A DNA stretch of 64,000 nt from Gammaproteobacteria bacterium (GTDB lineage: Bacteria; Pseudomonadota; Gammaproteobacteria; JBCCGL01): NCBI GenBank assembly GCA_965277715.1, contig OZ255836.1:2400001-2464000 (forward strand). Reading direction: 5' to 3'. The notes beneath the pieces were generated by a model that had not been told where the DNA came from, did no database searches, and was given only the letters and a program-made list of their open reading frames with translations. Positions 20,577 through 57,399 of this stretch are shown here, piece by piece (the first letter of the stretch is position 1; the number at the start of each line of letters is the position of its first letter). The translations under genes and the position numbers were made by a program.

Positions 20577-20695
20577 ATTCAGATCAAAAAAACAACAGCT
20601 TGTTATTACCATTCTATAAGCCAATAAAAAAACCTCCGGTATACGAGGCTTTAACAAAAAATACTTTGTTTATACTAAATAACTAGCCTGACCCC
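20577..20695. repeat. 119-bp element ending in RAYT-type end motif (copy 1)
   Basis: ATTCAGATC...AAATAACTAGCCTGACCCC; near-identical at 25217, 45867, 48111 and partial at 40149. Confidence 0.85.
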
Positions 20696-20707
20696 TTTTC
20701 TCCGCAG

Positions 20708-20869
20708 TTGTTGAAAAAGGCGTATGTTGATGCCCGTTATTCTGAGCACTATGAAATTACGGCGGAAGAGCTTGAGTGGTTGGCCGAGCGCGTGGTGTGC
20801 TTGCAGGGGATGGTGGAAAGGCTTTGTTTGAGGAAGATTGAGAGTCTCAGCAGTGACCATTTAATTTAG
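20708..20869 (+). pseudogene. C-terminal fragment of a HEPN-domain gene
   Basis: LLKKAYVDARYSEHYEITAEELEWLAERV, homologous to the 28320-28550 ORF; starts right after a TGACCCC linker. Confidence 0.75.
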
Positions 20870-20909
20870 GTAAAAGAATTCGTATAGTGGCCAGGTAGTG
20901 TAGTGGTCA

Positions 20910-21562
20910 TATATGGACCCGCAGTTAAATTCAACAATTTTTTAATCGTTCAGAGCAGACACAGTAAATAAGGTTAGCAGTCATATATCCGGCTTCTCAA
21001 TAGGACGGATTGTATTTGTTTATCCGTCCAGAGCCATAATGGGAACCGTGCTCAGACACCTCATCAAGCAATCGGTCTGTGAAGACCATGACCCCTCCAG
21101 GTTCTGTCTGAGCCGGTTTAACCTGTTATACCCTTTACTGCTCTTTCGCTACCTCGTGGTAAGAAATCTTCAACGACGCTATTAAGCCGTTTTATGCACG
21201 TAAGTTGTATTATTAGCCGCTACCGCCCAGCTAATTCTGGCGAGCTTATTGGCCAATGCCACCGCCGCCACACAATGGCCCCGACGTGCTTTGACACGAC
21301 AGGCCCAACGACTTAGCCCATTATCGTGTTTAGGCATTCGACTTAATGCCGCTTGCGCCCCCTGTATCAACAAAGTGCGCACGTGTTCGCCCCCGCGTTT
21401 ACTGATACCTTTTAGTTGCGTTTTGCCCCCCGAATTATATTGACGAGGAACGAGACCCAAAAAGGCGGAAAACTCACACCCATTTTTATAAAAACCCGGA
21501 TCGCCCATTGCTGTAAACAAGGCAGTGGCGACCAGAGGCCCTACACCCGGCAGTGTTTTTAA
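20910..21562 (-). mobile_element. IS110/IS1111 remnant: transposase 3' part plus ~270-bp downstream non-coding region
   Basis: AFLGLVPRQYNSGGK..GISKRG..VALANKLARI; non-coding region ending GCGGGTCCATATA; near-identical to 53192-53840. Confidence 0.85.
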
Positions 21563-21734
21563 TAGTACTCATTGCCAGGAAATATACGCTGTCTTCCCCT
21601 ACCTCGGTTCATTACGTGGTAGTAGGCGTTTTCATACTCTATGCGTAGAGATCTTGGCATTTAAGGAGTATAGCAGCACACCAAAATCATGCAATAGTAT
21701 ACTTGACCCTTTTGCATATAGTATACTTGACCCC
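21563..21734 (-). pseudogene. RAYT-like transposase 5' fragment with duplicated end motif
   Basis: MPRSLRIEYENAYYHVMNRG from ATG 21660; AGTATACTTGACCC twice (21704, 21728). Confidence 0.8.
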
Positions 21735-21787
21735 TTTATTTTTTTATTTTTTATCTCCTTTATTTCTTCTGACAACCCCAACGAGGC

Positions 21788-22474
21788 CTATGGGGCTTGC
21801 ACATTCAATTGAATAACACTGGCAACAAACGACTCCAGCTTTTTTCTATCATTGCCGTAAACAGTCATCGTGTACGTGTCACCGCCTATGTTAATTTTTA
21901 ACTCGATTGAAAGCTCCCCGTCACTAAACTTAAAAACCACATAGTAGTAACCATCAGCAAAATTATGGGCCAATAAAGGTGTTTTTAAGCTGCGAGAAGG
22001 GCCTTTGGCAGGAAACAATACTTCCAATGAGATTGTATGAAAAACGACAAGATCAAGCTTGCCTTGCTCATCTAGTGAGCTACAATCAAAACCAGAATAG
22101 CCATCCAAACGCCTAATAAAATAAACGATAGAGTCCCAATAAGTAAACGGCGTCTTATTGAGATCAAGCCCCAAATACTCAGCTAAATCTACTATGCTTT
22201 TTTCTTCAAAGTCAGATTTTATCTTTGCGATCCTTAACCCTGTATAAATGCCATCCTGTTTCGGATACTTGAGCATCCCGTAATTTTTTACTTCCGCGCG
22301 CTCATCAAGTATAAAGCCTTGCGAAAATACGCCATCTAACTCCAAAATGACTTCCGGGTAAGACACCTGATCAATAGCAATTAATAGCTTTTGACAGTCT
22401 GATTCATTGAAATTCCCCGAAGCCACACAATAGGACGAAATTAACAGCAAAAAAACAGAGATAATGTACTTCAT
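21788..22474 (-). CDS. Exported hypothetical protein (orphan immunity-like)
   Basis: Signal peptide MKYIISVFLLLISSYCVASG; AT-rich; lies between two RAYT end motifs. Confidence 0.6.
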   Translation of the reverse strand: MKYIISVFLLLISSYCVASGNFNESDCQKLLIAIDQVSYPEVILELDGVFSQGFILDERAEVKNYGMLKYPKQDGIYTGLRIAKIKSDFEEKSIVDLAEYLGLDLNKTPFTYWDSIVYFIRRLDGYSGFDCSSLDEQGKLDLVVFHTISLEVLFPAKGPSRSLKTPLLAHNFADGYYYVVFKFSDGELSIELKINIGGDTYTMTVYGNDRKKLESFVASVIQLNVQAP

Positions 22475-22599
22475 TAGATGGGCCACTCTCCAAACAACGT
22501 ATAACTCTGCGGGTAATCTGCCCTGATCATATTCAACCGCCCCGCAGTGACTGTCGCACCACGGACGAGCGAATTCCATAGCAATAAAGGGGTAAAGTA

Positions 22600-23335
22600 T
22601 CATATGAGTTTTTTAAGTAATTTTTGCAACGTTAAATCACCTGCCAATTGAGTTTCAAAGCGCCTAATAGCTATTGATACACTACCGTATCGCTTGAAAC
22701 CGAAGACTTCGGCAATATCTACCAACTTATGCCCACCCTCTTCCCGACACAGGTACATACATAAATCTCTCGCTACTTTCGCTTTCAACCCTCCCCTTGA
22801 TGGTCGGAGGATATCTTCACGCTCAATCTTCAACGATTTCGACACCCGAATAATCCATTCATCTACCGTAGGTCTAAACTGCTGTAAGTCACTACGGTTA
22901 ACTGCACTATCTATAGTTTCACGTTGCTCGTAGGCCCAACTGCGGAAATCCTCACTGCCCAAATAAGGCATTTGATTTCCCCGTCCGTAGAATCGCCTGA
23001 TTTCTTCATCAATGCCTTGCTCCACATAAGCCCGGTATCGTTGCGCAAAATACCGCTGATGAGGCACACCGAGCTGAGCCTGGATATCTCCCTGGTAAAG
23101 CCACTCCTGTGATGAACGACCATTTGCATAATCGTTGTAACTGGACCAGGGGTAATCCGCCAAATTCTTTACTAACCTAGCTTCCAGCGGGTTTCGGTGA
23201 ATATAGCGAGAGAGTTGAAGCTGATAACTATCTTCTTCAATGCAGATCGCTTTGTAACGCCTCTGAAATAACGGTGCATCGGTACGTTACGTGGTAGTAG
23301 GCGTTTTCATACTCTATGCGTAGAGGTCTTGGCAT
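22600..23335 (-). pseudogene. RAYT-like transposase, internally deleted copy
   Basis: Nearly identical to 23848-24807 but joins YHV to RTD near 23287, losing the HUH motif. Confidence 0.85.
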
Positions 23336-23418
23336 TTAAGGAGTATAGCAGTACACCAAAATTATTCAATAGTATACTTGACCCCTTTATCTCTTCTTTA
23401 CCCCCATACCCCTTATCA

Positions 23419-23673: not shown

Positions 23674-23847
23674 ACTTAATTTTCAATATCTATAAACATA
23701 TAAATTTCATTTTTATGAAAACACTTTATTAAAAAATACACAAATAAATATAGTTACATTTCTCTTGTTTTTCATCGTTATATCTAACAGAATTATTCTA
23801 TTTATTAATCACACTAAATAAACAGTAAAGGGTAAAGAGATCAAGTA

Positions 23848-24807
23848 TCATATGAATTTTTTAAGTAATTTTTGCAACGTTAAATCACCTGCCAATTGAG
23901 TTTCAAAGTGCCTAATAGCTGTTGATACACTACCGTATCGCTTGAAACCGAAGACTTCGGCAATATCTACCAACTTATGCCCACCCTCTTCCCGACACAG
24001 GTACATACATAAATCTCTCGCTACTTTCGCTTTCAACCCTCCCCTTGACGGTCGGAGGATATCTTCACGCTCAATCTTCAACGATTTCGACACCCGAATA
24101 ATCCATTCATCTACCGTAGGTCTAAACTGCTGTAAGTCACTACGGTTAACTGCACTATCTATAGTTTCGCGTTGCTCGTAGGCCCAACTGCGGAAATCCT
24201 CACTACCCAAATAAGGCATTTGATTTCCCCGTCCGTAGAATCGCCTGATTTCTTCATCAATGCCTTGCTCCACATAAACCCGGTATCGTTGCGCAAAATA
24301 CCGCTGATGAGGCACACCGAGCTGAGCCTGGATATCTCCCTGGTAAAGCCACTCCTGTGATGAACGACCATTTGCATAGTCGTTGTAGCTGGACCAAGGG
24401 TAATCCGCCAAATTCTTTACTAACCTAGCTTCCAGCGGGTTTCGGTGAATATAGCAAGAGAGTTGAAGCTGATAACTATCTGCTTCAACGCAGATCGCTT
24501 TGTAACGCCCCCGAAATAACGGCCCATCGGTACGTTTCTGTTTATTGTACCGCTGTGTATAAAGCCCATTGATGTGCCGCATACACCGTCCCAGATTACC
24601 TTCCGGTGTCTTCACCAATAAGTGATAGTGGTTGCTCATCAAGCAATAGCAAAGAACCTGTAGGCCAAAACGTCTATGAGCCTGCGCAAGGAGTTCAAGA
24701 AAAAGCGAGTAGTACTCATCGTCAGGAAATATACGCTGTCTTCCCCTACCTCGGTTCATTACGTGGTAGTAGGCATTTTCGTACTCTATGCGTAGCGGTC
24801 TTGGCAT
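23848..24807 (-). CDS. REP-associated-type Y1 HUH transposase (RAYT-like) with C-terminal DnaA-like HTH, intact
   Basis: YHVMNRG, CLMSNHYHLL (HUH), GPLFRGRYKA, YIHRNP (catalytic Tyr), YPWSSY, ARDLCMYL..LVDIAEVFG. Confidence 0.9.
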   Translation of the reverse strand: MPRPLRIEYENAYYHVMNRGRGRQRIFPDDEYYSLFLELLAQAHRRFGLQVLCYCLMSNHYHLLVKTPEGNLGRCMRHINGLYTQRYNKQKRTDGPLFRGRYKAICVEADSYQLQLSCYIHRNPLEARLVKNLADYPWSSYNDYANGRSSQEWLYQGDIQAQLGVPHQRYFAQRYRVYVEQGIDEEIRRFYGRGNQMPYLGSEDFRSWAYEQRETIDSAVNRSDLQQFRPTVDEWIIRVSKSLKIEREDILRPSRGGLKAKVARDLCMYLCREEGGHKLVDIAEVFGFKRYGSVSTAIRHFETQLAGDLTLQKLLKKFI

Positions 24808-24866
24808 TTAAGGAGTATAGCAGTACACCAAAATTATGCAATAGTATACTTGACCCCTTTATCCTT

Positions 24867-25340
24867 CCAACCCAATACGCTGTGCCTGATCGCTAAAAAA
24901 GGCGGACAGGACGGTGTAGTACACATCAATCAGGATATCGCACTGTACTGCGCTGTGCTCGAAGCGGGTCACACGATTGAACACCCTGTTATGGTAGATA
25001 GGCATAGTTGGGTGCAAATAGTGCGAGGGTCGTTAGTACTGAACGGTGTCACCTTGCAGGCAGGGGATGGTGCGGCGGTGAGTGAAGAACCATTGTTGTC
25101 ATTTAGCGCTGGTGATGACAGTGAGTTTTTGTTGTTTGATTTGGCTTAATGCCATGTGATATCACATATCATTAGCTTATTAAGATCGTATTTACCATCA
25201 ACTCACCTCCCTTTCCATTCAGATCAAAAAAACAACAGCTTGTTATTACCATTCTATAAGCCAATAAAAAAACCTCCGGTATACGAGGCTTTAACAAAAA
25301 ATACTTTGTTTATACTAAATAACTAGCCTGACCCCTTTTC
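24867..25340 (+). repeat. Direct duplicate of pirin 3' end plus 119-bp element
   Basis: Matches 20227-20700 as far as I can read by eye. Confidence 0.92.
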
Positions 25341-25441
25341 TTTTCTCTTTTCCCTCGTAAAAGTTATAACGCCCCAATAACCGGCGCGCGCTTTTTGCGC
25401 GTCCGGCGTCGCAGGCGCGTAGTTAATTGACTTGTTATGCA

Positions 25442-25813
25442 TTAGTGCCGGACTACCGCGTCGTTTTTAAGGAAGTCACACCAAGCCTTTAAAGACCATT
25501 TGGAAAATATATTATTTTCTTTGAGATCATTCTCGGCACTTAGCTTTAACATATAACCCTCAATTGAGATAAGGTTGTTACGTACAGCCGACTCAAAGTC
25601 TATGCCGACATTTTGAGCAAAGAACTCATCTGATTTGTCTGCGTTATTTAGTAAGAACTTCAGATCGTCTGCGGCTTTAATTGCTGCCACTTTAGTAAAG
25701 GCTTCTTCTGGAATAGGCCAGTGGCCCTCTCCAGAGCTTTTTACTGGATCACATAAATTTTCAGCAGTTGCTGAACCTGAAATTAGTGCAAGTAGGATCA
25801 AATATTTCTTCAT
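25442..25813 (-). CDS. Cassette: exported hypothetical protein
   Basis: Signal peptide MKKYLILLALISGSATA; fills one cassette. Confidence 0.7.
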   Translation of the reverse strand: MKKYLILLALISGSATAENLCDPVKSSGEGHWPIPEEAFTKVAAIKAADDLKFLLNNADKSDEFFAQNVGIDFESAVRNNLISIEGYMLKLSAENDLKENNIFSKWSLKAWCDFLKNDAVVRH

Positions 25814-25890
25814 AGCTTTAAGATGCATAACACCGCGCTCGGCGGCAAATTTGGAGCGCAGCGGAAAATTTGTCCGGCAGCAGCACTTTG

Positions 25891-26486
25891 TTAGGAGCTG
25901 ACTTCAAGAGCATGCCTAAGTAAGCTTTGCCAGTTACCGAAAATGTACCCATCATAAGCAGAATAAAAACTTCTCTCTATTGCTTGGTGCCCTTCATTTG
26001 ACAAGGCAGCATTAAATCTGTTGAGCTTAACTTTTTTTGCTGCATCGAAGCAGTGGTCATGAAATGCATCATCCAAGTAACCTGATCGTCGGGCATGATA
26101 CGCACCAATCCAATACCATGATTTCTAGCGTAAGAAATTGCTCCGCTTTGGAATGAGTTCTTAGTAGCAATAACGCCTTTTACATTTTTTCCCGCAATTT
26201 GGTCTAGCTTCGCTTTAAACTCCTCAACATCATCTACTGGAACTTTGTGCCCGTAATTCTTGCATTCACATACCCAAAGCAAGGAGTGATTTTTAGCGCC
26301 AGGAGGCCACACTTCAATAGATATATCGACAATGATGTCTTTCTCGCGATCTTTGGAATAGTAGCCCTTCTTCTTGAATATTTTTCCAGAAGCAGCATCA
26401 ATTCCTAAGCGCCCTTTGCTCAATTCTTCTTTGAGGAGATCAAACGTCCTATCTTCCAGCGCATCTCCTTTTGCCACGGTATTCAT
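25891..26486 (-). pseudogene. Cassette: Mrr-like restriction endonuclease, frameshifted
   Basis: KGDALE..VDI..ECKNY..VPVDDVEEF..FQSGA; C-terminus continues in another frame (25891-26076) near an A-run at ~26035. Confidence 0.7.
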
Positions 26487-26552
26487 GTGCCTCCTAACGC
26501 TGGCCTAAATCGCCGAGCGGTAGCTTGGTCGATTTGAGGCCCTGGTTATGTT

Positions 26553-26867
26553 TCATTTGTCTAATGCCTTTCTGATAGCCTGTAGTTTTTGTTGACTAGC
26601 TTTTAAACTTTCATAAAGATGCCAAACCAAATCATCGACTTCTTCAATGATGGCTTGACGTTCATGTTTTTTCCCTGTGCTTGCTAGGGTAGACAGGCGA
26701 TTGGCTATAGTTCGTTTTGCGCCAAGTGCACTTTTGCCGCCACCATCATGGACTGCCCAATAAATTTCCCAGTAATCATATTCAGGGTAGTCCTGTTCCA
26801 TAATCTTTGATATCTGCTTGCCTTCCTGCGCGAGTGTTTGTATTCCAGTTCTATCTTTTTTATTCAT
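26553..26867 (-). CDS. Cassette: hypothetical protein
   Basis: 104 aa ORF filling a cassette. Confidence 0.65.
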   Translation of the reverse strand: MNKKDRTGIQTLAQEGKQISKIMEQDYPEYDYWEIYWAVHDGGGKSALGAKRTIANRLSTLASTGKKHERQAIIEEVDDLVWHLYESLKASQQKLQAIRKALDK

Positions 26868-26984
26868 TGCTGATTCCTCTTAAAGTGAAATTTTCAGTAC
26901 TACTTGAGAACATAACGCCGTGCTCTGCGGCAAATTTGGAGCGCAGCGGAAAATTTGTCCGGCAGCAGCGCCTCGTTAACTGTG

Positions 26985-27613
26985 ATCACATCGAGTCAAT
27001 TTTAGCGATGATTTCTTTATGTTTTTGAATCTCTTCATTTTGCCACTTACTATTTCAATGCCAGTCGCTAGGCCTTGGATTTTTATGTTCACAGCTTCTG
27101 CAATACTGATTTTCGAAACCGAATTCTTCAATAGGCGACTTGTAAATATTATCCAAATCCCAGCCTCCCGTAGCATGCCCCATTTTTATGCAATGCACCC
27201 ACTTCATTGCTGCGGATGGTAATCCTAGCATTCGAGCAGGGATTCCTTGCGCTCTAGAAGGAAATACTATTAGATTCTCACAATCCTTGATGACTCTCTC
27301 AGGGTTATAATCTTTAAGCCCTTGTTTTATTATCTGGCCCATTTCATCTTTAGGGTCGTCGTAGTTGAATCCTAAAGCTTTTGCCCTTTCACGAAAAAAC
27401 TTTAATTCATCTTCTGGGGTTGCATCTTCATTGCTTTTCTTAATATCAGCTTTTATCTTAGCAATCGTATCAGTAACACTAGTCCTTAGCAAGTTCAATT
27501 TCACCATCTATACCGTAATCCTCTTGATCTTCTTGTGATCTAAATATCCAGTGATCAGGTAAATGGAATTCGAGTATCCTGCCTGCTTTACGTCCAATTT
27601 CTTTCGCGTTCAT
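26985..27613 (-). pseudogene. Cassette: DUF4365-like nuclease-domain gene, disrupted
   Basis: Own translation MNAKEIGRKA..WIFRSQEDQEDYGIDGEIELAKD*; remainder in another frame with a further stop at 27055. Confidence 0.55.
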
Positions 27614-27722
27614 TGATTCTCCATTCGTAGGCAGTTAACGTCGCACTAAAGGGCGCGCGTTAGCGCGTCCCAGCCCACGTTTTTTGTGGGCGATTTTGAG
27701 CGCCTTGTTAGCACTATTGCTT

Positions 27723-28238
27723 TTATTCATCCCATGCATTTTTTAACTCTATATCTTGGCTCTTGCTGCGAATTTGAAAATGAAGGTATGCAAACGGGCC
27801 ATACGAACCTTGACACCGAAGCACGTAGTAAGTATCTGCTGATTCTAACGAAAACTCGCCGGGAGCGCCAAGCTGACTATTGGAAACGGGTGAACTCTTA
27901 TAGTTAGGAAATGCTTGACTGATTAGCAGCGATGCCTTCTCTTTCAGGCTCTCACATTCTTCCCAATTTTTAACTGCCTTTTCTGCTGTTACTATTACCA
28001 CGTGACCTGTTGCATTTAAATAGGCAATTGAATACTCAGAAAAAATAGATGAAATATTACCATGATTTGGCACTCGGAATTGAGTTGTAGGCCTACCTTT
28101 ATCTTTGTTTTGCATCCCTTGAGGGTGGGAAAATCTTTCGCCTACCGGAATTTTGAGTAGTGACGGATACTCAGCGGCAGATAAAACAAGAGGAACAAGC
28201 ATTAATACTAAGGTGAGAATTTTCTTCATTTCTTTCAT
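27723..28238 (-). CDS. Cassette: exported hypothetical protein
   Basis: MKKILTLVLMLVPLVLSA signal peptide. Confidence 0.65.
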   Translation of the reverse strand: MKEMKKILTLVLMLVPLVLSAAEYPSLLKIPVGERFSHPQGMQNKDKGRPTTQFRVPNHGNISSIFSEYSIAYLNATGHVVIVTAEKAVKNWEECESLKEKASLLISQAFPNYKSSPVSNSQLGAPGEFSLESADTYYVLRCQGSYGPFAYLHFQIRSKSQDIELKNAWDE

Positions 28239-28319
28239 CGTGCTAACGTTTGCTTGTGCGGCGCGCAGCAACGCGGAGCGTCCCACATGAAACTATTGTT
28301 ATGCCTATTTGCTTCATAA

Positions 28320-29177
28320 CTATATAAAGCTTGCAATTTTTTCTTTGCACAGATTTTCTGTTAAAACTTGTAATTTTTGTACCCGCTCTGCTAACCATTT
28401 TAGCTCCTCTTTTGTAATTATGTAGCTGGGTTTATAGCGAGCATCAACATATGCCTTGCGTAAAAGTTTAAAGCGGTTTTTTTCTTCTTCTGTACTTTGT
28501 GGAAATACAGTAAGAAACTGTGGTTCAATGCTGCTTACACGTTGACCCAATTTTACTAAATCATGTGTGCTAGGTTTATAACGGGTAAAAACTAAAAGAA
28601 TTGTGCCGTAAAGGCGCTCTGTGACTTGGTGGAGTAAAAATTCAGCATTATTATAGTTACCCCTATCAAGTGGTGCGTTAAAATCGAGAAAATATTATTT
28701 AGCACTTATAAACCAATATTCAAAATCCTCTTCTGCCAGTTTTTTTCGCTCACTTGGCGATATTTCCTTTGGCTCGACTAACTCAAATGCTCCTGAGTTA
28801 TACAACACAATTCCTTCACGCTTGATATCAATATAAAAGTACTGGCTCTTTCTTAAGCGTCGGTTAATAAATTGGATATCTTCCGCGATCAGGCTGATTG
28901 GAGTTCGGTGGATGGTTTTTATCAAACGCTGATTGAGTTGATTATTTTGCTCAATTTTACTAGCTTCTTTCCGGGTTTCTGTAACAACCAATAGATCAAA
29001 GTCACTTTGATAACGGTAGTGCAGGGTTTCCAGGTCTATATCCTCCACCCAATCACCACGCGCATAACTACCAAACAAAATGAGCATATCGGGATTGATC
29101 TCTTCACGGATAATTTCCACAGCTCGCTGTAGTTCCTGCTGTTTCTGTTCCGGCAGGTGGTCAAGTGAAGTTTTCAT
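28320..29177 (-). pseudogene. Cassette: nucleotidyltransferase-HEPN fusion with internal nonsense codon
   Basis: ILFGSYARGD..SDFDLLV; in-frame TAA at 28695-28697, then HQVTE..THDL..AYVDARY. Confidence 0.85.
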
Positions 29178-29547
29178 AGGTGAATAATATCAGTTTCCTT
29201 TCAACAGCACAGACTTAAAGTTTGGGAAGCATACGCCTCGCATCAGCGGCTGACAAAGCGCGTAGCGGTTTGGCAGTCCGTTGCATGCGCTTGTTATGTG
29301 TATTTCTGGATCGCCCATTTGAATGCTTCAACACTTGCACTTTGAATTTTTTCATTTCTTTCTTTCGCAGAAATCCAATTAGAAATACCATTTACTGAAA
29401 ACCCATTGCTTTCACCTTGGGCCAGCTCACGAATAGCTTGATAAACTCTATGTTGAATTTCATTTGCGTCCCTAAGCAAAAAGGAAAAGGGGTCAATCGT
29501 ATTTAGTATTTTTCAAACGATTGTAAACCTGCTCAAACACGCCCTTC

Positions 29548-30215
29548 GTAAGCGCCCTTAAATCAGCCTCTATTCCAAGGTAATGTCCAAAACGACATGC
29601 CAAGGTAGCAAGGCCTCTCTCTTTTCAAGAGTATCGGCACTGCCGATATGATTAAGGGCGTGCAGTATGTACGCATAGGGTTCAAGCCCATTAGCTTTGG
29701 CCGTTTCGATCAATGAGTAACATGTGGCACTGGCATGGGCGCCACGGGTTGAATCGGCAAACAACCAGGCTTTTCTACCCACGGCAAAAGGCCTAATGGC
29801 ATTTTCAGCCAGCACGTTGCTGATGTGTAACCGTCCATCATCACAGTAGCCTGTGAGGGTATGCCATTGATTCAGTGCATAGTCCATGGCGTTACGAGTA
29901 AGGGACTTTTTAGCCACCTGGGTAATATGCTTATCCAGCCATTGTTTGAAGTCTTCCAACACCGGTTGGCTAAGTGCTTGGCGAAACCTTTGTTTTTCTG
30001 CGGGTTCAAGCGCTTGTGAGGTAATGCCAGAAATGGCACAGCCATTGGCCAGCGTAAAACACAAACCCGGATCACCCCTTTGCCTATCAGCCACCATCAC
30101 TTGGGTAAAGCCTGCTACAGGCATGTTACTCTGCACTGCTTGAATAGTTTTACGCGAACATTTACGGCTCCAATAGTAAAACTGCTTCAAGTGGATGCCG
30201 TTATCCTTAAACTCC
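29548..30215 (-). mobile_element. IS66 remnant (tnpA piece fused to tnpC 3' end)
   Basis: End GTAAGCGCC at 29548; ISNVLAENAIRPFAVGRKAWLF, YSLIETAKANGLEP, LLPW. Confidence 0.8.
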
Positions 30216-30219
30216 ATCG

Positions 30220-30434
30220 ACATGCTGCATGATGCGACTGAGGTTAACATCCGGTGTTTCCAGCAGTAGGTGGTAGTGGTTGCCCGTTAGGCAGTAAACT
30301 TCGCCATGAAAAATCGCCTTACGCTCCCGACCACGGTTCATTATGTGGTAGAAGGCGTTTTCGTATTCTATGCGCTGAGGCCTTGGCATCGGTTGGTATT
30401 GGTACAATCTACACTAAATAACTAGCCTGCCCCC
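30220..30434 (-). pseudogene. Third RAYT-like type, 5' fragment plus upstream end motif
   Basis: MPRPQRIEYENAFYHIMNRG..NHYHLL; upstream AAATAACTAGCCTGCCCCC matches the end of the 119-bp element. Confidence 0.8.
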
Positions 30435-48110: not shown

Positions 48111-48228
48111 ATTCAGATCAAAAAAACAATAGCTTGTTATTACCATTCTATAAGCCAATAAAAAAGCCTCCGGTATACGAGGCTTTAACAAAAAATACTT
48201 TGTTTATACTAAATAACTAGCCTGACCC
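48111..48228. repeat. 119-bp element (copy 4)
   Basis: Same Rhs junction as copy 3. Confidence 0.85.
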
Positions 48229-48436
48229 GAATGGCACTTCCTTAAGACGTAAGCAACTGATAGTAAAGAGTTTATTTATTCTTTCTAAGAAAAAAAATGA
48301 TATTTTGAAAGTTGCCGCCAATGATAACCGGGATAGTTTTACAAATATTGCTTTCAAGAACCATATGCCAAGTTATCTGAACCAAGCACGTAATACCAAT
48401 ACTTTCAAATACTTACAGCTTAAGGAAGTGCCATTC
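48229..48436. mobile_element. IS4-type MITE with 11-bp target duplication
   Basis: TAGCCTGACCC at 48218-48228 and 48437-48447. Confidence 0.9.
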
Positions 48437-48562
48437 TAGCCTGACCCCTTTTATTCTTAAAAAAAAGCCAAGAGATTCACGCCCGAAATCAGACGAAGCA
48501 TGGACTCGCGAACTGTCTGACTTCTTATTGGGTGTGAATAAACTTATCGAACAGGATGATTT

Positions 48563-48868
48563 TTAATCTTCAAATGGGGTGAGAATACTCTCAGCTTCAC
48601 TTTGCCTTAGAAAGCGCGTAAATAATTCCACCCCATCTTCGATGCTATCTTCGATAGGAAATACACGTTCGACCTGATGAAATTTCCACGCAACTTTAAC
48701 TGAATCTGAAGTAGTAAATTCAGATTCGTGTTTCCCAGCAACTTTTTTTGCTTTTTCTTCGGCTTCAGCTTCATCAAGGGCTGAAACCAATAAAATGCGT
48801 TCTTCCCATAGCGGCGGCTCTGAATCACTTCGTTTGCTTTTATACATAAGGCTAACTGAGTAATACAT
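48563..48868 (-). CDS. Putative immunity protein (DUF4288-like)
   Basis: MYYSVSLMYKS..LWEERILLVSALDEAEAEEKA; 8 bp after the Rhs tip stop. Confidence 0.65.
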   Translation of the reverse strand: MYYSVSLMYKSKRSDSEPPLWEERILLVSALDEAEAEEKAKKVAGKHESEFTTSDSVKVAWKFHQVERVFPIEDSIEDGVELFTRFLRQSEAESILTPFED

Positions 48869-48876
48869 ATTAAGTC

Positions 48877-49768
48877 CTATTTTTGGAATCGTTTATCGTT
48901 CAATAATTTCCATGCCTTTTTGTATTCCTTGCTGTTACCCCGTCTTATTTCTTCAAGTGTTTTGCCTCTAAGGTTTTCGGGGAATTCGCGATTGATACTG
49001 CCCTTACAGTTTTTTCCAATCCAGTCATCAGCTTTGCTACCAAACTTATCAAGTGCATCTTGTGCAGCTTTTCTCAGTTTCGGATCAGACAGCGCGTCCA
49101 TTATGTTTCTTATCTGACGGGTATTACCACGCGCTATAGCTTGCATCAATGCTGCACGAAGTGAATCAAGACCGGTTGGGTCAATAAAGTTAACGGGATT
49201 CTGTTCAGCATAGCCATACAAATGGTTTAGCGAACCATACAGCCCTTCCGGCGAGATAAGCCCCATTTGGACAGCGATTTGCAACTGTGGGTCACTGTAG
49301 TCGCGTAGGATACCAATTGGGTCAGCAGTTAAATACCTTCCGAGACTGGGGTCATAGTATCGGAAGTAGTTATAGTGAAGTTGTGATTCACTGTCATAAT
49401 ACTGCCCAGCAAACCGCAAATTCACAACAACATCTTTACCGTTGCCATCTGGATCACTTTTACTCAGCGTATCACCAAATGCTTCACCCTCCCAACGCCA
49501 TACAATATTCCCACCTGAATCCGTCGCAAAACGGGGCGTCATCAGGTGATCAGTGTGAAGGTAGTAGATTGTATCGCTATCTGCAATAGCATCATATTCA
49601 ATTTGTGCTATAGGCGCATAATCCAGCCAGATATAATCCTTTATAGGTTCTCCTCGCTCATTCGTTTCACTTATCAGCACTCCCTGAAAATCATAATGGT
49701 AGACGGTGGTGCTAATAGTATTATCCGTATTAACCACCACTTTACGCATGCGCTGCCCCATCGCGTTA
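48877..49768 (-). CDS. Orphan Rhs core fragment plus basic helical toxin tip
   Basis: NPVNFIDPTGL then ..CKGSINREFP..KTLEEI..WKLLNDKRFQK. Confidence 0.85.
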
Positions 49769-50181
49769 CTGCGCACCTGTCCATGGCTTACGCCGCTATC
49801 GCGCTTCAGCCCTGGCCAGTTTGTTGGTCGCTCCTGCGCGTCCTGCGCTCGCGACATTAGTGCATCCCTGCACGTCGCCCACCCACCCGTGTCAGGAACA
49901 GGGTGGCTCCAGCCAGCCCAAAAAGCGTGCTGTCTTCCACTCCCCCTGTCCCTGGCACTCCCCATTTTTTAGTCGCTAATGTGGCTGGGGCTTCGATTAG
50001 CCAAGGTGGCGTCGGGTAGAGCGGCCTTCCTGTGTCTCCCTTTACCTTAGCACCGTGCTCGGGTCGTCAAGGCCAAACCCTACGGGTGCTCCGCTGTGCT
50101 GCGCAGCCTTGACAACCCTGCGCTCGATGCACGGAAAAGGCAGCCCCAGGAATCCCTCCGGGGCATTAGCAGGAGAAACAA

Positions 50182-50394
50182 ATGAAACATCATCTAATTC
50201 TTACACCGCCTCAAGCCTTTATAGATCGTTGTGAACAAGACGGGGTTAAACCCGAACGGGTATTGAAAGGGTTTATTGCCGATCTGTGTGAGTTGTATGA
50301 AGGGGATTATCTGAGCAATGGCAGTGATGAGCGAATGAAAGCAGAGGAGTACTACAACCGGGTAGGGTATCAGTACTGGAAGGAGTGCAAATAA
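50182..50394 (+). CDS. Small hypothetical protein
   Basis: SD AGGAGA; degenerate inverted copy at ~55183-55365. Confidence 0.6.
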   Translation: MKHHLILTPPQAFIDRCEQDGVKPERVLKGFIADLCELYEGDYLSNGSDERMKAEEYYNRVGYQYWKECK

Positions 50395-50486
50395 TCATCG
50401 TCCAAGGGCCGGGGTTTATCCTCGGCTCTTTCCCGGCGTTGGTATTGGGGACTGGCGGCTAAAGAAAAAAAGCACTTGCAAAGCGG

Positions 50487-51161
50487 ATGAATTTAGTGGA
50501 AAAGGTGTGTCTAGGTAAAATTTTTAGAGGTATAGGGTTGTATCAGGGGAATTGTGCGTTAAGTGATTGTCCTTACTGGGAAAAACCGGCGGCGAACGAT
50601 GAGTGGGCATCGGAGCAAGTACTTGCTGGGCAGTATTTTGATCAAGAAACCAAACTGCACTATAACTACTTCCGGTATTACGATCCAAGTACAGGGCGAT
50701 ATGTAACTCATGATCCGATTGGGTTATACGGTGGATTTAATACTTATGGATATGCCTATCAAAATCCACTTTATTGGATAGATTTATTCGGCTTGGATGT
50801 TATTTGTGAAGATGGTGTAGTAAAGCCAACTGATCCAACTCTTCTTGATATTTTGAAAAAAATAGATGAAAAATACCCAAATAAAGATGTCAATGTTACA
50901 AGTGGCACTAGAACACCGGAGCATCAAGAACGGCTTAGGCCTGGTACTGGGTACGGTACTAACGGTACAAAAGTAAGTGATCATGTCAAAGATCGTGCTG
51001 CAGATGTTAAAGTTGATGGTGTTTCATCATCTGATGTTGCAGATCTTGCAAGGGAATTAGGAGCGTCTGGAACTATACCATATAAAAACCACACACATGT
51101 TGATACAAATCCTAATAGGCAATATCATCCTAGGCCATCAGCTTTGCCATCATCACAATGA
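50487..51161 (+). CDS. Rhs tip with M15-type peptidase domain
   Basis: Rhs similarity starts at AGQYFD (~50624); tip VTSGTRTPEHQ..SDH..AADV..HTHVD. Confidence 0.75.
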   Translation: MNLVEKVCLGKIFRGIGLYQGNCALSDCPYWEKPAANDEWASEQVLAGQYFDQETKLHYNYFRYYDPSTGRYVTHDPIGLYGGFNTYGYAYQNPLYWIDLFGLDVICEDGVVKPTDPTLLDILKKIDEKYPNKDVNVTSGTRTPEHQERLRPGTGYGTNGTKVSDHVKDRAADVKVDGVSSSDVADLARELGASGTIPYKNHTHVDTNPNRQYHPRPSALPSSQ

Positions 51162-51604
51162 AATTAATTAAATTTTTATTTTTAATAATTAATTTATTTT
51201 CTTTCCATGCTAATGCTGATGAGGTGTTTCCTTTAGAGCTAGAGAAGGTTGATAGGCTTCAGTGGTATGGCAATATTTTTAAAATGGAGATGGGCCCATT
51301 GGATATGAGTAACAATATTCGCTATAGGATTTTATATATGAAGGAGGAAGCTTATCTTGTATATTTTGAAAAGCTATACGAGGATGATGAGGGTTTGATT
51401 CGACTTCGTGATAGTTATTTCGTTAATTTTTTTGATGTATTAAAGAATATAGATAGATCATACGATTTTGTAACCATAGATTTTTTTTATTGGATTTCAG
51501 AGTCAGTGATCAAAGTTAAGACTAATAAGGGGTTTTTTATTATTTATTCTGAAAATGATAAATGGTTCGTAACTGCTCACCCCCGAAATTCCCAGTTAGA
51601 ATAA
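51158..51604 (+). CDS. Exported putative immunity protein
   Basis: Signal peptide ending ANA-D; overlaps the toxin stop by 4 bp. Confidence 0.7.
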   Translation: MKLIKFLFLIINLFSFHANADEVFPLELEKVDRLQWYGNIFKMEMGPLDMSNNIRYRILYMKEEAYLVYFEKLYEDDEGLIRLRDSYFVNFFDVLKNIDRSYDFVTIDFFYWISESVIKVKTNKGFFIIYSENDKWFVTAHPRNSQLE

Positions 51605-51631: not shown

Positions 51632-53191
51632 CAATGGCACTAAGTTAAGCGGTTTTAGCGGGTAAAATAAACGAAAAAATAACTGTAATAAACCCAATAA
51701 AAAAGGCTGAAATGTTATAATTTTGTATGAAAAATACAACCTTATTTCTACCCGGATTCAACATCCAAACACTCCGCAAAACACCCCGTTCAGCCATTCA
51801 AATCTTGCACGATAAGATAGCAAAAATACGTCACAAATCACTGAGTGAACTACCTGTTTTTCTTGGCGATATTATACCCACGAATATTCTTAAACCGAAT
51901 GATTTTGGTGTGAATAGTCGTCGACGTATTTTCAGTAAAGAAAATACTTTCTGGTTGTTTTTTTCACAAATAATGAACGCCGATGGTGGCTGTAAAGAAG
52001 TCGTTAGACAACTGCAAAATGTCGCCCACAACCAAGGCATTCCCATACCTTCATCATCCACCTCCGCCTATTGCCAAGCACGTAAAAAACTACCCATGGA
52101 CGATCTTAAAAACGTATTTTCAGGGACGTGTCGATTATCGCCACCTCAACCCAAAGCGCTCCAAGGTCGACCGGTTATCGTTGCCGATGGGACAGGCCTA
52201 TCCATGCCCGATACGCCCGCGAATCAACAAACTTACCCACAACCGAAATCACAAAAACAGGGATGCGGATTTCCTCAAGCACGGCTTTTAGCTTGTTTTA
52301 ATCTTTATAGCGGTTTAATTCTGAGCTATGCACTAGGAAATAAAAAAAGTCATGAGCTAAGACTTTTAGAAGAACAATGGGATACCTTCAATGAAGGTGA
52401 CATTTTCTTAGGTGATAAAGGTTTTTGCAGCTTCTACGATATTGACTGCCTCTCTCGACGAACGGTTGACAGTGTCGTTACATTGGCGCGGAGAACGCCC
52501 AGCACTGCCTCCCAGGCCAAAAAGAAGATAGCCGATAATGACCTTCATATTGAATGGCAAAAACCTAAACACACAAAAGCGACCCGTTACACAAAAGAGC
52601 AGCATAGCGACCTTCCAAAGACCTTAACTTTACGACAAATACACGTCAGTATTGTACGAAAAGGATTTAGGACGAACCATTTTTATATCATCACGACACT
52701 ACTTGATGCTCAGCAATATCCCGCTATAGAAATTATCGACCTCTATGCACAGCGCTGGAATGTGGAACTGTATTTTCGCAATATTAAAACCACCATGGGT
52801 ATGGATATATTACGCTGTAAAACACCTGATATGGTTCGTAAGGAAATCATCATGCACATGATTGTTTACAACACGATCAGGCACATCATGTGTGTCGCTT
52901 CATACCGACATGACACACCGGTTGATCGGCTAAGTCTTAAAGGTGTTTTGCAAACACTCCGACAAAGCACTTCATCACTTGGTAGTGGGCAGAGTCCAGC
53001 ACAAAAAAGACGGCAATATCTTGATTATTTATATGCAGCGATTGCGGATGATCGTGTGCTTCATCGACCTTTTAGATTTGAACCAAGAGTGGTAAAAAGG
53101 CGACCTAAACCACGGGCATTAATGACTCGACCAAGGAACGTTTTAAAAACTGAATATTGGCAAGCTAAAGCGGCTTAACTTAGTGCCATTG
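51632..53191 (+). mobile_element. IS4-family insertion sequence (transposase 51727-53178)
   Basis: TIRs CAATGGCACTAAGTTAAGC / GCTTAACTTAGTGCCATTG; ADGT, GDKGF, YAQRWNVELYFRNIK. Confidence 0.92.
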
Positions 53192-53840
53192 GCCTCTGAT
53201 CACCACTGCCTTGTTTACAGCAATGGGCGATCCGGGTTTTTATAAAAACGGGCGTGAGTTTTCCGCCTTTTTGGGTCTCGTTCCTCGTCAATATAGTTCG
53301 GGGAGCAAAACGCAACTCAAAGGTATCAGTAAACGCGGGGACGAACACGTGCGCACTTTGTTGATACAGGGGGCGCAAGCGGCATTAAGTCGAATGCCTA
53401 AACACGATGATGGGCTAAGTCGTTGGGCCTGTCGTGTCAAAGCACGTCGGGGCCATTGTGTGGCGGCGGTGGCATTGGCCAATAAGCTCGCCAGAATTAA
53501 CTGGGCGGTAGCGGCTAATAATACAACTTACGTGTATAAAACAGCTTAATAACGTCGTTGAAGATTTCTTACCACGAGGTAGCGAAAGAGCAGTAAATGG
53601 TATAACAGGTTAAACCGGCTCAGACAGAACCTGGAGGGGGTCATGGTCTTCACAGACCGATTGCTTGATGAGGTGTCTGAGCACGGTTCCCATTATGGCT
53701 CTGGACGGATAAACAAATACAATCCGTCCTATTGAGAAGCCGAATATATGACTGCTAACCTTATTTACTGTGGCTGCTCTGAACGCTAAAAAATGAATGA
53801 ACGATTAAAAAATTGTTGAATTTAACTGCGGGTCCATATA
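53192..53840 (+). mobile_element. IS110/IS1111 remnant with downstream non-coding (bridge/seek RNA) region
   Basis: ORF piece 53211-53549; non-coding 53550-53840; abuts TGACCCC at 53841. Confidence 0.85.
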
Positions 53841-53882
53841 TGACCCCTTTTACTGATCCCTTTTCTCTTTTCTCTCTCATTT

Positions 53883-54449: not shown

Positions 54450-54468
54450 AAGTTTAAATGCTCATAGT

Positions 54469-54953
54469 AATTAAACACTACTAGGCGGTTTAGGAGGTAA
54501 AGTTGGATTACTAGGATCAACCGGCGATGCTGGTGGATCATAAGGCTGTTCAGCAGGAGGAGGATTTCGATTAGGAAGTCTGGGTGGTCTAGGCGAACCA
54601 GCCCCCCCCCATCTTGTGCATCATCAACCTGTTTAGAAAGAAGCCTACATAAAAGATATGCGATCATTGCGCCTTTGCTTGGCCTCTTTGGAGGTTTGCA
54701 CTTATCTTTTTCTTTTGGTTTCTTATTATCACTGGTAGAACACTGCTGAGCTGCTAAACCAAATAAATCAAAAAAACCAAATAAATTAAAAAAATTAAAA
54801 AAAGATTAGTGGATTACTCCCAACATAAGCATAAGTATTAATTCCTCCATAAAGACCTATAGGATCACTATTTATATATCTCCCTGTCGTGGGACCGTAA
54901 GTGCGGAAGTAGTTGTAATGTAAGTTGGTTTCACGATCAAAATACTGCCCAGC
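54469..54953 (-). pseudogene. Rhs tip, frameshifted
   Basis: Starts AGQYFDRETNLHYNYFRTY..DPIGL; frame change near the C-run at ~54602 into a Pro-rich tail. Confidence 0.7.
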
Positions 54954-55556
54954 AAGTACTTGCTCCGACGACCACCTACACCAACAAAACCATTTTCACC
55001 TGACACAACAATCACTTAACACACAATTTCCCAGGGACAACAACACACCTCTAAAAGTTTTACCTAGACACACCTTTTCCGCTAAATCACCCCATTTTGC
55101 AAGTACTTTTTTCTTTTAGCCGCCAGTCCCCGATACCAACACCAGGAAACAGCCGGGGATAAACCCCGGCCCTTGGGCGGTGGTTATTTGCATTCCCTCC
55201 AGTACGGATACCCTACTCGGTTGTAGTATTCCTCTGCTTTCATTCGCTCATCACTGCCATTGCTCAGATAATCCCCTTCATACAGTTCGCAAAGATCTGC
55301 GATAAACCCTTTTAACACCCGTTCGGGTTTAACCCCTTCTTGTTCACAACGATCTATAAAAGCTTTATGGTATAGATGGGTAAAATATCAGATTTTAATA
55401 GGGTAAAAATATTTTTTGTTATGATCAGAGCGTGGCAAAAACATCGGAAAAATGAACAATATTATGATCGATAATTTGGGAATTTATACGATCAGAAAGC
55501 GGTACGCTACAAGAAAGTCGCACGCTACAATATTTTTATGAATCTGCGTTCTTATT

Positions 55557-55973
55557 TTAAATATCAAACCCCAAAGAAATTTTTAATTTTGAAAGACGAT
55601 CAAGTAGTTGCCAGTCAAATATATCAGCATAACTAATATATTTATCTTTCTCGCCAAAAATAACTAAGGAAAACCTCCCTCCAGACAAGAACAATCCAGA
55701 CCAATATTGATCGTCTTTTTCAAACTCTTCTAAAATCCCCGCTATTAAATCAGTTCCACATAACCCCTTTTCGTTTTCCAGTCTTAAACAGCAATATGAA
55801 TGGTCATATTTTCCATCAAGCCTTTTGCCTTTAGGTGTTTTTCGCTGACTATTTGCTTTCCATATGCGAAACGGATTAATACCAAGCTTTTTTGCTGCAA
55901 ACTCAAGATTTTCTTCAGGATGTTTAATTTGAAATGAAATTTTAAATTTGTGATTTACCATACCCAAACTCAT
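55557..55973 (-). CDS. Putative immunity protein (DUF4279-like)
   Basis: FQIKHP..LGINPFRIWKA..RKTPKG..G.Y..SY..LSKLKISLGFDI; preceded by a toxin-like tail. Confidence 0.65.
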   Translation of the reverse strand: MSLGMVNHKFKISFQIKHPEENLEFAAKKLGINPFRIWKANSQRKTPKGKRLDGKYDHSYCCLRLENEKGLCGTDLIAGILEEFEKDDQYWSGLFLSGGRFSLVIFGEKDKYISYADIFDWQLLDRLSKLKISLGFDI

Positions 55974-56098
55974 AAATTATTCACACAGGCCTGTAGGTCT
56001 ATTCGTATAATCATCCGCTGGGCCATGATTTACAGAAGGTCCATCGGGATTGCTAGTTATTACATCGTCATTAGAGCAGAAAAAAGAAAAGAAAAAAA

Positions 56099-57124
56099 GG
56101 GGTCAATCGTATTTAATATTTTTCAAACGGTTGCAAACCTGCTCAAACACGCCCTTCAAGCTGCCGTCTGACAGCCCACTCTTTACATAATCAATTGCAG
56201 GAGAAAGGCTACTAACACGACTATATCCAAACATATCAACCAGCGTTTTTAACGGCATATCCCCCAATTGCTGACAACAATATATCGCTACTTTACGAGG
56301 CAGATTCGCCCGTTGTCTCCCCCGCTGTCGCGTAAGTACATCACTCGCGTTAACGCCAAACACCGCTGCCACTACATCGAATATAGCTGCACCGTTTGGC
56401 TTGTCCGTCACAATAAGGGACAAGTCCCCCGATATGTGCATCGACGGTTTTCGGCAATATACGTCTTGAAGGATTTGTCACCCAGTATCGTCGCCACATT
56501 GCCTTTGTTATAAAAACGGCTAATGTCCTCATCAATACCTCGACCAACATATGTCTTATAAGCAACGTAACGTTGTTTAGCACCGAGTGCACTATAGGCT
56601 GCCTCTCGATACAACCATTCTGGTGCTTTGGCTTGGTTGATGTAAGCGTGGTAACTCGACCAGGAATAGCTATCGAGCTTATCCGCTGTTACACCTTTTA
56701 CTTCTATTGGGTTACGATGAATGTAACGGCTTAAGGGTAATAAGTAGTCATCTGCATCCACAATAATCGCTGTATAACGACCGCGAAAAAGAGGCCCATC
56801 CGTGCGTCTAAGCCGGTTGTAGCGTTGTGTGTAGATACCATTGATATGCCGCATGATGCGATCCAGGTTAGCACGAGGGGTTTCGATCAATAGATGATAA
56901 TGATTACCCATCAAACAGTAAGCGTGGATGCAGGCATCAAAGCGTTTATGTGCTTCATTGAGCGTTTGTAGAAATGCCTGGTAGTAAACTTCGCCATGAA
57001 AGATGGTCTGTCTGGCTTTGCCACGATTCATAACGTGGTAGTAGGCATTTTCGTATTGTATTCGAGTAGGTCTAGGCATCGTTTAAATTTATACTATTTT
57101 GAAAATATTAAATAGGATTGACCC
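56099..57124 (-). mobile_element. RAYT-like element type B, full length with both TIRs, frameshift near 56444
   Basis: ORF pieces 56408-57079 and 56103-56441; ~23-bp inverted ends. Confidence 0.88.
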
Positions 57125-57333
57125 GAATGGCACTTCCTTAAGGCGTAAGCAACTGATAGTAAAGAGTTTATTTATTCTTTCTAAGAAACAAAAATGATAT
57201 TTTGAAAGTTGCCGCCAATGATAACCGGGATAGTTTTACAAATATTGCTTTCAAAAACCATATGCCAAGTTATCTTAACCAAACACGTAATACCAATACT
57301 TTCAAATACTTACAGCTTAAGGAAGTGCCATTC
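57125..57333. mobile_element. IS4-type MITE
   Basis: Both TIRs present; inserted after AGGATTGACCC. Confidence 0.85.
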
Positions 57334-57399
57334 AGGGTTGATTCCTTTTACTATTTGATTGATATTAAATTGCATTGACCCCTTTTATGCAGAGCGCTA

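Follow-up and report, generated by a model that had tools for sequence, protein, structure and literature searches.

TIRYT-type terminal repeats punctuate an Rhs toxin array in a gammaproteobacterial genome

Analysis of a 64,000-nt stretch of a Gammaproteobacteria bacterium of the GTDB lineage JBCCGL01 (assembly GCA_965277715.1, contig OZ255836.1, positions 2,400,001 to 2,464,000; hereafter the window) revealed that the heptamer TGACCCC, which recurs between small genes and the modules of an Rhs toxin array, is the outer end of transposable elements encoding RAYT-like Y1/HUH transposases. These enzymes belong to the published TIRYT/TIRtron class, and neither this element class nor its terminal repeat GGGGWSAS is new, both having been in print since 2013 and 2018. 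The mosaic that the elements form with Rhs modules and other insertion sequences (IS) is probably a pile-up of already known types of element within a toxin array that is tolerant and prone to recombination, for which a dedicated capture function is not needed. Two alternatives in which the enzymes themselves move neighbouring genes, as well as an error of assembly, are weighed below together with the evidence that bears on them.

The window contains 23 exact copies of TGACCCC, compared with 5.83 ± 2.5 expected from 100 dinucleotide-preserving shuffles, the highest of which reached 11 and none of which attained 23. All 12 plus-strand and all five exact minus-strand copies listed in an earlier, sequence-only reading of this DNA were located, and the variant reported there at 22589 reads GGGGTAA. 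When the flanks of all 23 copies were compared, 17 proved to be outer tips of repeat families, named A to F, while the remaining six (at 15254, 21089, 32497, 49348, 53637 and 61225) lie in unrelated contexts and correspond approximately to the number expected by chance; two of these six fall within an IS110 copy. The trinucleotide TTT directly follows TGACCCC at all 17 tips and at none of the six background copies, and a pyrimidine content of at least 80% over the next 20 nt was found at 8 of the 17 tips versus 1.4% of random 20-mers from the window. The shuffle excess, together with the TTT and tract statistics of the 17 tips, indicates that both the enrichment and the pyrimidine tract are real. 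Since every tip is the end of an element, tips mark boundaries. Most boundaries between unrelated segments had been proposed to carry the motif; several of them turned out to be made by other insertion sequences (IS110 pieces, the IS4-type IS, ISL3 and an IS66 piece). As proposed, the motif recurs as punctuation among Rhs tip/immunity modules and small genes and, on the coding strand, Rhs modules stop just before a tip at 44556, 46299, 48442, 53841 and 57376, and before the variant GGGATCA at 51620. A search across the window for intact tip pairs 0–14 nt apart returned none.

Both the 319-aa protein of element B1 and the 283-aa protein of element C1 (encoded at 42515-43366) consist of a Y1_Tnp domain followed by a helix-turn-helix (HTH) tail of the Bac_DnaA_C type. 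PF01797 (Y1_Tnp) matched B1 with E = 8e-12 and C1 with E = 3e-15; the HUH motif HYH occupies residues 60-62 in both, as does the sequence YIHRNP, with its tyrosine at residue 119, residues 119-124. Bac_DnaA_C scored 31.9 bits in B1 (cut-off 31.5) and 35.2 bits in the C2 fragment, and besides these two domains no other transposase or helicase domain was found by Pfam at E ≤ 0.01. In the relevant sections of Quentin et al. 2018 (PMC6006769), the architecture of Y1 plus C-terminal HTH defines subclass 2.1, subgroup 2.1.2, the mark of the subgroup being a C-terminal extension of the Bac_DnaA_C, HTH_23 or HTH_28 type, and the subclass is equated with TIRYTs. The latter are described in the corresponding sections of Di Nocera, De Gregorio and Rocco 2013 (PMC3733652) as RAYT-like genes between terminal inverted repeats, many of which share GGGGWSAS and some of which are reiterated as singles, dimers or clusters. 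The window elements share with this class the Y1 HUH nuclease with its HUH motif and catalytic tyrosine, the C-terminal HTH extension of the DnaA_C type, terminal inverted repeats starting with GGGGTCA, rather than REP (repetitive extragenic palindrome) hairpins, at the gene flanks, and gene-less repeat copies occurring as singles, pairs or clusters (five of A, two of D and the tip pairs around F). The GGGGTCA start fits seven of the eight GGGGWSAS positions in every window family and all eight in A and F tips, the eighth position being A rather than S in B and C; C ends are ~30-nt inverted repeats starting GGGTCAAT. A full-text literature search on 'TIRYT' found survey papers only and no experimental work on any member, so that how a Y1 single-strand nuclease acts on inverted-repeat ends is a question of interest.

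Three TIRYT subfamilies (B, C and G) occur within one 37-kb stretch, and the minus strand carries all seven TIRYT gene copies or pieces along with the full-length rhs gene, just downstream of which C3 is located (Table 1). Two copies of the small element F (48229-48436 and 57125-57333) start right after the TGACCC of an A or a C tip and are flanked by direct tip repeats (48223/48442 and 57118/57338), each pair of which may represent one tip duplicated by insertion of F. These direct repeats fit either an 11-bp target duplication by an IS4-type miniature inverted-repeat transposable element (MITE) or Y1 insertion 3' of the tip. F itself can be read either as a pure TIRYT MITE or as an IS4-type MITE that made an 11-bp duplication, and each of these readings has one copy in its favour.

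TGACCCC(TTT) forms the outer tip of the inverted repeats that terminate ~1-kb TIRYT/TIRtron units, of which this sponge-associated bacterium carries at least three subfamilies (B, C and G) along with the gene-less A (130 nt), D (32 nt) and tip pairs around F; in the scenario that we favour, the mosaic would have formed in three ways. In the first, elements would insert or reiterate next to existing tips; the nesting is visible in the window, and we infer the chemistry. Relatives elsewhere bear on this point. A genome scan with B1 confirmed 559 relatives, and 80 loci from many proteobacterial and other lineages were kept, the window's own species not being among them; full-length relatives are 36-59% identical to B1. 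Tip statistics were drawn from 76 near-full-length relatives, using only flanks of at least 150 nt (71 upstream, 73 downstream). GGGTCA was present upstream in 63 of 71, mostly ~50 nt before the start codon, and TGACCC downstream, near the stop codon, in 53 of 73, compared with 1/71 and 5/73, respectively, in reversed-orientation controls. In the 46 relatives with both tips, the tip-to-tip length ranged from 963 to 1100 nt (median 994), and none of these 46 carried cargo, so that the element is the gene alone. Tandem reiteration of tips, a trait of the family, occurred upstream in 11 and downstream in 9 of these 46. Pyrimidine tails were also considered as a family-wide trait and dropped, as the mean purine fraction outside the left tip (0.62) and the mean pyrimidine fraction outside the right tip (0.43) in the 46 relatives compare with 0.51 for random 30-mers. 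Accordingly, the tails are regarded as a trait of the window lineage and a few close relatives.

In the second way, which the window displays, IS110, the IS4-type IS with its small relative F, ISL3 and IS66 have landed in or beside tips and tails. The ISL3 element sits within the ~80-nt purine/pyrimidine tail of the C1 right end. The IS4-family element cuts a tip-like GGGATCATATAT with its left end (site at 51620) and an IS110 piece with its right end, and no target duplication was found around it (51632-53191). Each of the three IS110 pieces ends beside an 18-nt near-palindrome resembling two tips joined head to head, and IS110 also occurs inside a tip MITE in another genome, G092. Since ISL3, IS110 and IS4 elements sit at tips, much of the apparent punctuation consists of mobile elements nested in each other's ends. 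IS110 elements beside or inside TIRYT tips were seen in three unrelated genomes, namely in the window, at L128 (4300-5500) and at L013 (~8010), and the data suggest that this IS110 lineage targets TIRYT repeats, much as other IS110 members use REPs. As a separate observation, contigs of one sequencing run (X4) join the right end of ISL3 to its own left end with 3-4 letters in between, which would fit circles or head-to-tail copies of an active ISL3; the summed depth of ISL3 is the highest in the stretch.

In the third way, the Rhs orphan array would have grown by C-terminal displacement, and RecA recombination between 0.57-kb repeats composed of A plus a core fragment would have multiplied the orphans. 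The array has the expected composition, with core fragments, variable tips and small downstream genes following an rhs gene of full length, and PF03527 or TIGR03696 matched the first interval given for each of the three orphans in Table 1. The orphan cores share 0.4-0.57 kb with each other and with the main rhs gene at 93-98% identity, and the position of the downstream genes suggests an immunity function. In orphans 2 and 3, A is joined to the core at the identical base, and 568 nt are common to both at 97% identity, beyond which the tips and downstream genes differ. The shared A/core junction and the 97% identity indicate that these orphans represent one junction copied rather than two captures. 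The junction of orphan 1 has no tip and lies 33 nt further in. In the window, L024 and G092, core fragments begin within ~25 codons of the YDxxGxR start of the core domain and, because the starts cluster there, the position of the break reflects the Rhs gene and not a tip-specific cut. The core fragment of orphan 3 (45611-45868) contains two in-frame stop codons, so this module appears to be decaying, with its tip and downstream gene still open.

An assembly artefact, in which misjoined repeats of 0.1-1.2 kb would have created false boundaries and the 476-bp duplicate described below, could draw on the density of 92-100% identical repeats in the region. Contigs of four public sequencing runs (X1, X3, X4 and X6) were placed on 39900-57700; they are short and break at repeats, and none spans a whole repeat plus both flanks. 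The short-read contigs of X6, which may be the source sample of the window, nevertheless cross six junctions between a tip and unique DNA without a single difference, and the same architecture occurs in independent genomes. Because of these six junctions, we regard an artefact as extremely unlikely. The summed depth of X6 is 10-60 times higher in repeat bins than in unique bins, a ratio that is not a copy number; contig joints with sides of 20-43 letters probably come from other copies and were not used to call empty sites, nor were uncovered orphan bins in X1, X3 and X4 used as evidence. The public runs containing the region are sponge metagenomes and runs of an organism coded 'A'.

The sequence-only reading had gone further and proposed that the enzymes join their end motif to foreign DNA and build an integron-like store of toxin and immunity cassettes. 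In such a dedicated system, the TIRYT protein would be a site-specific single-strand recombinase that shuffles toxin/immunity cassettes at tips, with the Rhs core fragment supplying homology for later activation. A survey of 399 Gammaproteobacteria genomes recovered 100 TIRYT-like matches (E ≤ 1e-40) in 71 genomes, and ~400 matches to the Rhs core domain in 138. Proximity of the two was scored within ±8 kb of 96 TIRYT loci (1.15 Mb, excluding those of the genome at the centre of the survey); Rhs cores were sought by tblastn with four queries at E ≤ 1e-4, more divergent cores being missed in test and control alike. As a control served 100 rve (IS3-type) matches (1.27 Mb), which we chose from the 150 listed of 582, favouring those at least 5 kb from the contig start, taking at most three per genome and skipping genomes flagged as unpublished. 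An Rhs core lay within 8 kb of 4 of 96 TIRYT loci (~0.37 expected by chance for a rough mean genome size of 3.1 Mb) versus 2 of 100 rve loci (~0.41 expected; Fisher p = 0.44); the tallies include 3-4 unpublished genomes, with no case of co-localisation among them. The four loci are L087, L128, L146 and L151, three of which have no core fragment following; at these three, 89-127 nt lie between the stop codon of the gene behind rhs and the tip. At both control loci, too, the IS is located downstream of rhs. A first pass had found an Rhs-like gene at 2 of 80 loci, with the TIRYT gene just downstream on the same strand in both. A TIRYT-specific link to Rhs, as these counts (2/80, then 4/96) might have implied, did not hold up against the IS3-type control (2/100) and is not shown by these numbers; the rhs flank collects mobile DNA of several kinds in general. 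Around B1 homologues the tip motif is conserved, and Rhs cores are no commoner than near the control. Exilibacterium tricleocarpae (G001; L177, L178, L179 and L024) presents a separate observation: of its eight TIRYT-like matches, four are co-oriented with an Rhs core at a distance of no more than ~2 kb, and at L178 an orphan core is preceded by three to four repeated pieces of the element's left end.

Two kinds of arrangement speak for a dedicated integron-like system. Tip elements lie exactly 5' of Rhs core fragments in the window, in G092 and, with a short gap, in G001 (L024), where 9 nt separate a right tip from a 974-nt copy of the end of the rhs core and a deleted TIRYT follows the next module; in addition, local arrays of tip MITEs and toxin/antitoxin genes occur beside TIRYT genes. 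Against it, most TIRYT genes are solitary: of the 144 loci where a left tip was identified, no more than 17 have at least two further repeat copies nearby, and several of these are stutters of the ends. Moreover, all three C gene copies are damaged, C1 by shortening, C2 by loss of the left end and C3 by a frameshift; the end of a cassette away from the tip is arbitrary, a second conserved site being absent; and core fragments start at the conserved beginning of the core domain even where there is no tip. With 46 of 46 relatives cargo-free and Rhs proximity at the level of the control, the integron-like store was not demonstrated, and we consider a dedicated system of this kind very improbable. 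A metagenome scan with a 27-nt pattern of the A end gave no matches.

Several observations weigh against a pile-up of known elements as a complete account. In all four sampled Rhs loci, the TIRYT gene is downstream of rhs and co-oriented with it, and the control sample is small and hand-picked from the listed matches. In G092, a 64-76-nt tip pair, identical to the local TIRYT ends, stands directly 5' of two Rhs core fragments, the resulting units being 99.4% alike. In G148, elements of ~100 nt (GGGGTCA...TGACCCC) stand between toxin-antitoxin modules beside a TIRYT gene, the order being rhs, a downstream gene, TIRYT with tandemly duplicated ends, and Phd/YoeB, Fic and Phd modules. Unlike dispersed REPs, these tip MITEs are local, with five of seven copies in the 10-kb array of G148 and three of four full copies in the array of G092. 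In the window, B1 and B2 end in decayed right tips; behind each of the two come a single whole small gene, then a purine-rich tail, then the following tip. Finally, the end of the pirin gene together with A has been copied over a distance of 4.6 kb at 100% identity, which neither simple insertion nor homologous recombination explains. The left joint of this 476-bp copy is made by 11 nt of B1 tail and the right joint by more tail, and the two pieces read as one normal B pyrimidine tail split by the insert. With a tip at one end of the copied piece and an arbitrary end at the other, the junction cannot be a product of homologous recombination; the copy, known from the assembly alone, can arise by one-ended transposition or by a replication template switch. 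The junction suggests that processing of an end by the enzyme may copy DNA beside a tip. As a side observation, the tandem TIRYT ends of G148 (L087, 7696-8196 and 8887-9098) comprise 250 nt of the left end, including the first 65 codons, and 109 nt of the right end.

One-ended transposition with transduction of the flank, comparable to that of IS91/ISCR and Helitrons, in which one good tip is cut, the far end is decayed or missed and neighbouring DNA is pasted outside another tip, would explain the 476-bp copy, the B units, the G092 and G148 arrays, the local MITEs and the loci with repeated ends. Arrays of tip, element body and whole gene would then be a by-product rather than a dedicated system. 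The position of the 476-bp copy inside the B1 tail is in keeping with this explanation, as are the start of F right after TGACCC at both an A tip and a C tip, the decayed right ends of the units formed by B1 with an 84-aa gene and B2 with a 228-aa gene, and the twofold presence of A with core fragment, tip and immunity gene. Right-end pieces repeated in a single orientation between genes (L013 and L042) and tandem end duplications (L087, L008 and L020) point the same way. On the other hand, the literature search found only two TIRYT surveys, without biochemistry, cargo is absent from all 46 relatives measured, an 11-bp target duplication by an IS4-type MITE would equally account for the direct repeats flanking F, the 476-bp copy could be a template switch, and the DNA examined contains no A next to a full-length rhs gene that could have served as its source. 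One-ended transposition is less likely than the pile-up but a serious candidate for explaining the locus. The broader claim that TIRYT nucleases are not only selfish, and copy neighbouring genes into tip-punctuated arrays by cutting at one tip and pasting beside another, is in our view unlikely; if true, it would mean that an HUH-based counterpart of the integron stocks Rhs tips, immunity genes and toxin-antitoxin modules beside the enzyme gene in several Gammaproteobacteria.

With the accumulation of known elements as the preferred reading, the remaining features of the window can be placed around it (Table 1). Sites in the attC frame RYYYAAC...GTTRRRY, read by eye rather than with a model, lie between the seven small genes at 25343-29488, two of which encode an Mrr-like nuclease and a nucleotidyltransferase. 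No integrase was found among the 49 open reading frames (ORFs; at least 70 aa, 19-63 kb) scanned with Pfam, and the genes may form an integrase-less cassette cluster. An Rfam scan of the whole window at the gathering threshold gave no matches. An inverted duplication (50213-50585 and 54993-55365, 87% identity), comprising a 70-aa gene of no known family and downstream DNA, heads two short Rhs-core-end modules that point apart. The label DUF4279, used in the sequence-only reading, had no counterpart in Pfam, which returned no match for 55557-55973. Between orphan 1 and the plus-strand module lies a GC-rich segment of 215 nt (49966-50180) with neither an ORF nor an Rfam match. The segment 31580-39641 encodes a 320-aa FHA protein, a Ser/Thr kinase of 1297 aa that is fused to a STAND-type ATPase with TPR, a pair of small ORFs, of which one weakly resembles nitrile hydratase alpha (E = 0.004), and, last, a YcaO protein of 697 aa; judged by gene content, this looks like a cluster for a ribosomally synthesised and post-translationally modified peptide (NHLP-type precursor plus YcaO) beside a signalling pair.

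Table 1. Positions of mobile elements, Rhs modules and neighbouring features in the window.
Feature	Position	Strand	Description
TIRYT B1	23826..24867	-	intact 319-aa Y1_Tnp + Bac_DnaA_C gene 23848-24807
B1 tips	24851-24857	+	left-end TGACCCC; right end decayed to GAGATCA
TIRYT B2	22578..23396	-	B1 copy with 214-bp internal deletion; tips 23379 and 22589 (GGGGTAA)
B3'	21563..21740	-	B left end and first ~50 codons only; tandem tip 21704/21728
TIRYT C1	42405..43411	-	283-aa gene shortened by 24-nt deletion; both tips kept
TIRYT C2	43609..44493	-	no left end; right-end tip 43614 joined into truncated F copy
TIRYT C3	56099..57124	-	frameshifted gene, 56103-56441 and 56408-57079
TIRYT G remnant	29485..30434	-	third subfamily, interrupted by IS66-family piece
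G remnant, parts			C-type right end 29485-29548; IS66 piece 29549-30244; N-terminal HUH region 30245-30389
G remnant, left end	30428		A-type tip variant TGCCCCC
A	20573..20702	+	gene-less, 130 nt; G-type left-end tip, decayed inner end
A, further copies	25213-25342, 45863-45992, 48107-48228, 40149-40235		five copies in all
D	40324..40355	+	solo 32-nt C-like terminal repeat; second copy 57351-57382
F	46074..46305		~212-nt core between two inverted tips; inverted ends like IS4-type IS
F, further copies	48229-48436, 57125-57333, 43412-43606		last copy truncated
Copy of 20227-20702	24867..25342	+	exact; last 94 pirin codons, downstream DNA, A with tip
IS110-family piece (Transposase_20)	53192..53847	+	other pieces 20905-21562 (inverted), 44494-44562
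IS4-family IS	51632..53191	+	483-aa DDE transposase
ISL3-family IS	41076..42394	-	8-bp target duplication 41068-41075 / 42395-42402
Full-length rhs	57621..62756	-	1711 aa
Three orphan Rhs modules	44616..49965	-	core fragment/toxin tip/putative immunity gene
Orphan 1	48877-49965 with 48563-48868	-	
Orphan 2	47210-48073 with 46328-47104	-	
Orphan 3	45038-45610 with 44616-45020	-	
Short Rhs core end module	50182..51604	+	Peptidase_M15 tip 50487-51161; 148-aa downstream gene
Relative of short Rhs module	53883-55365	inverted relative to 50182..51604	with Sel1 protein
Seven small genes between attC-like sites	25343..29488	-	bounded by A tip and C-type tip

The locus offers natural substrates for work on the TIRYT mechanism, namely an intact B1 gene and good, decayed and solo ends, and its fresh 476-bp duplicate resembles a reaction product. 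Should the capture of genes at tips prove true, it would constitute a second, mechanistically different cassette system beside the integron and a route to polymorphic-toxin arsenals; if it is wrong, the locus still documents rhs flanks that collect mobile DNA and repeats on which IS110 and IS4-type elements land. Relative to TIRYTs as described in the relevant sections of PMC3733652 and PMC6006769, the window differs in being multi-copy, with its subfamilies packed into 37 kb, in the TTT and variable pyrimidine tails, and in some decayed far ends followed by whole genes; those sections contain no link of the class to Rhs arrays. Among the papers listed by a literature search on Rhs orphans and immunity, none contains the term 'tyrosine transposase'; another search found nothing relevant on polymorphic toxins combined with HUH, gene capture and cassettes, and a text search of a 2026 Stenotrophomonas Rhs preprint found neither transposases nor inverted repeats mentioned.

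Among other known systems, REP/REPIN sequences with their RAYT share with the window a related Y1 nuclease and clustered short repeats that other IS use as landing sites. The window lacks GTAG-tagged hairpins, no REP hairpins being found at the ends, and its gene is present in seven decaying copies or pieces, whereas RAYT genes are single and domesticated; the NCBIfam RAYT model NF047646 scored 72.1 and 57.3 bits for the 319-aa and 283-aa proteins, respectively, below its cut-off of 80. IS200/IS605 elements have a small TnpA, subterminal hairpins and no inverted repeats, and insert 3' of a 4-5-nt target. The window elements possess inverted repeats and reach 24.9 bits with NF033573 (cut-off 55), the sole hint of insertion 3' of a tip being the start of F directly after TGACCC. 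IS91/ISCR and Helitrons are HUH rolling-circle elements with a Rep-type transposase, distinct ori and ter ends and experimentally demonstrated one-ended transposition; they capture flanking genes by read-through of an end, and their one good end, missed far end and carried genes resemble what one-ended transposition would produce here; the window differs in its protein family, Y1_Tnp and Bac_DnaA_C being the only Pfam domains recovered, and in its inverted terminal repeats. Repeat-targeting IS110 members, such as IS1111 with the Coxiella QMITE, have a parallel in the IS110 copies beside the tip palindrome in the window, in the tip MITE of G092 and beside a tip at L013, the apparent target here being a TIRYT repeat and not a REP or QMITE. 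Integron arrays, defined by the tyrosine recombinase IntI with its attI and attC sites, likewise hold small promoter-less genes, many of them toxin-related, between short structured repeats, and the attC-like array adjoins the TIRYT region at 25.3-29.5 kb; the tips, however, do not have the attC frame, the 49 ORFs scanned include no integrase, and the enzyme would be an HUH nuclease instead of a tyrosine recombinase. Rhs orphan arrays, finally, are reportedly built by C-terminal displacement. The window resembles them in its full-length rhs gene followed by modules of core fragment, tip and immunity gene, and departs from them in that a 130-nt element of transposon origin stands at the head of two of its orphans, attached to the core at one and the same base.

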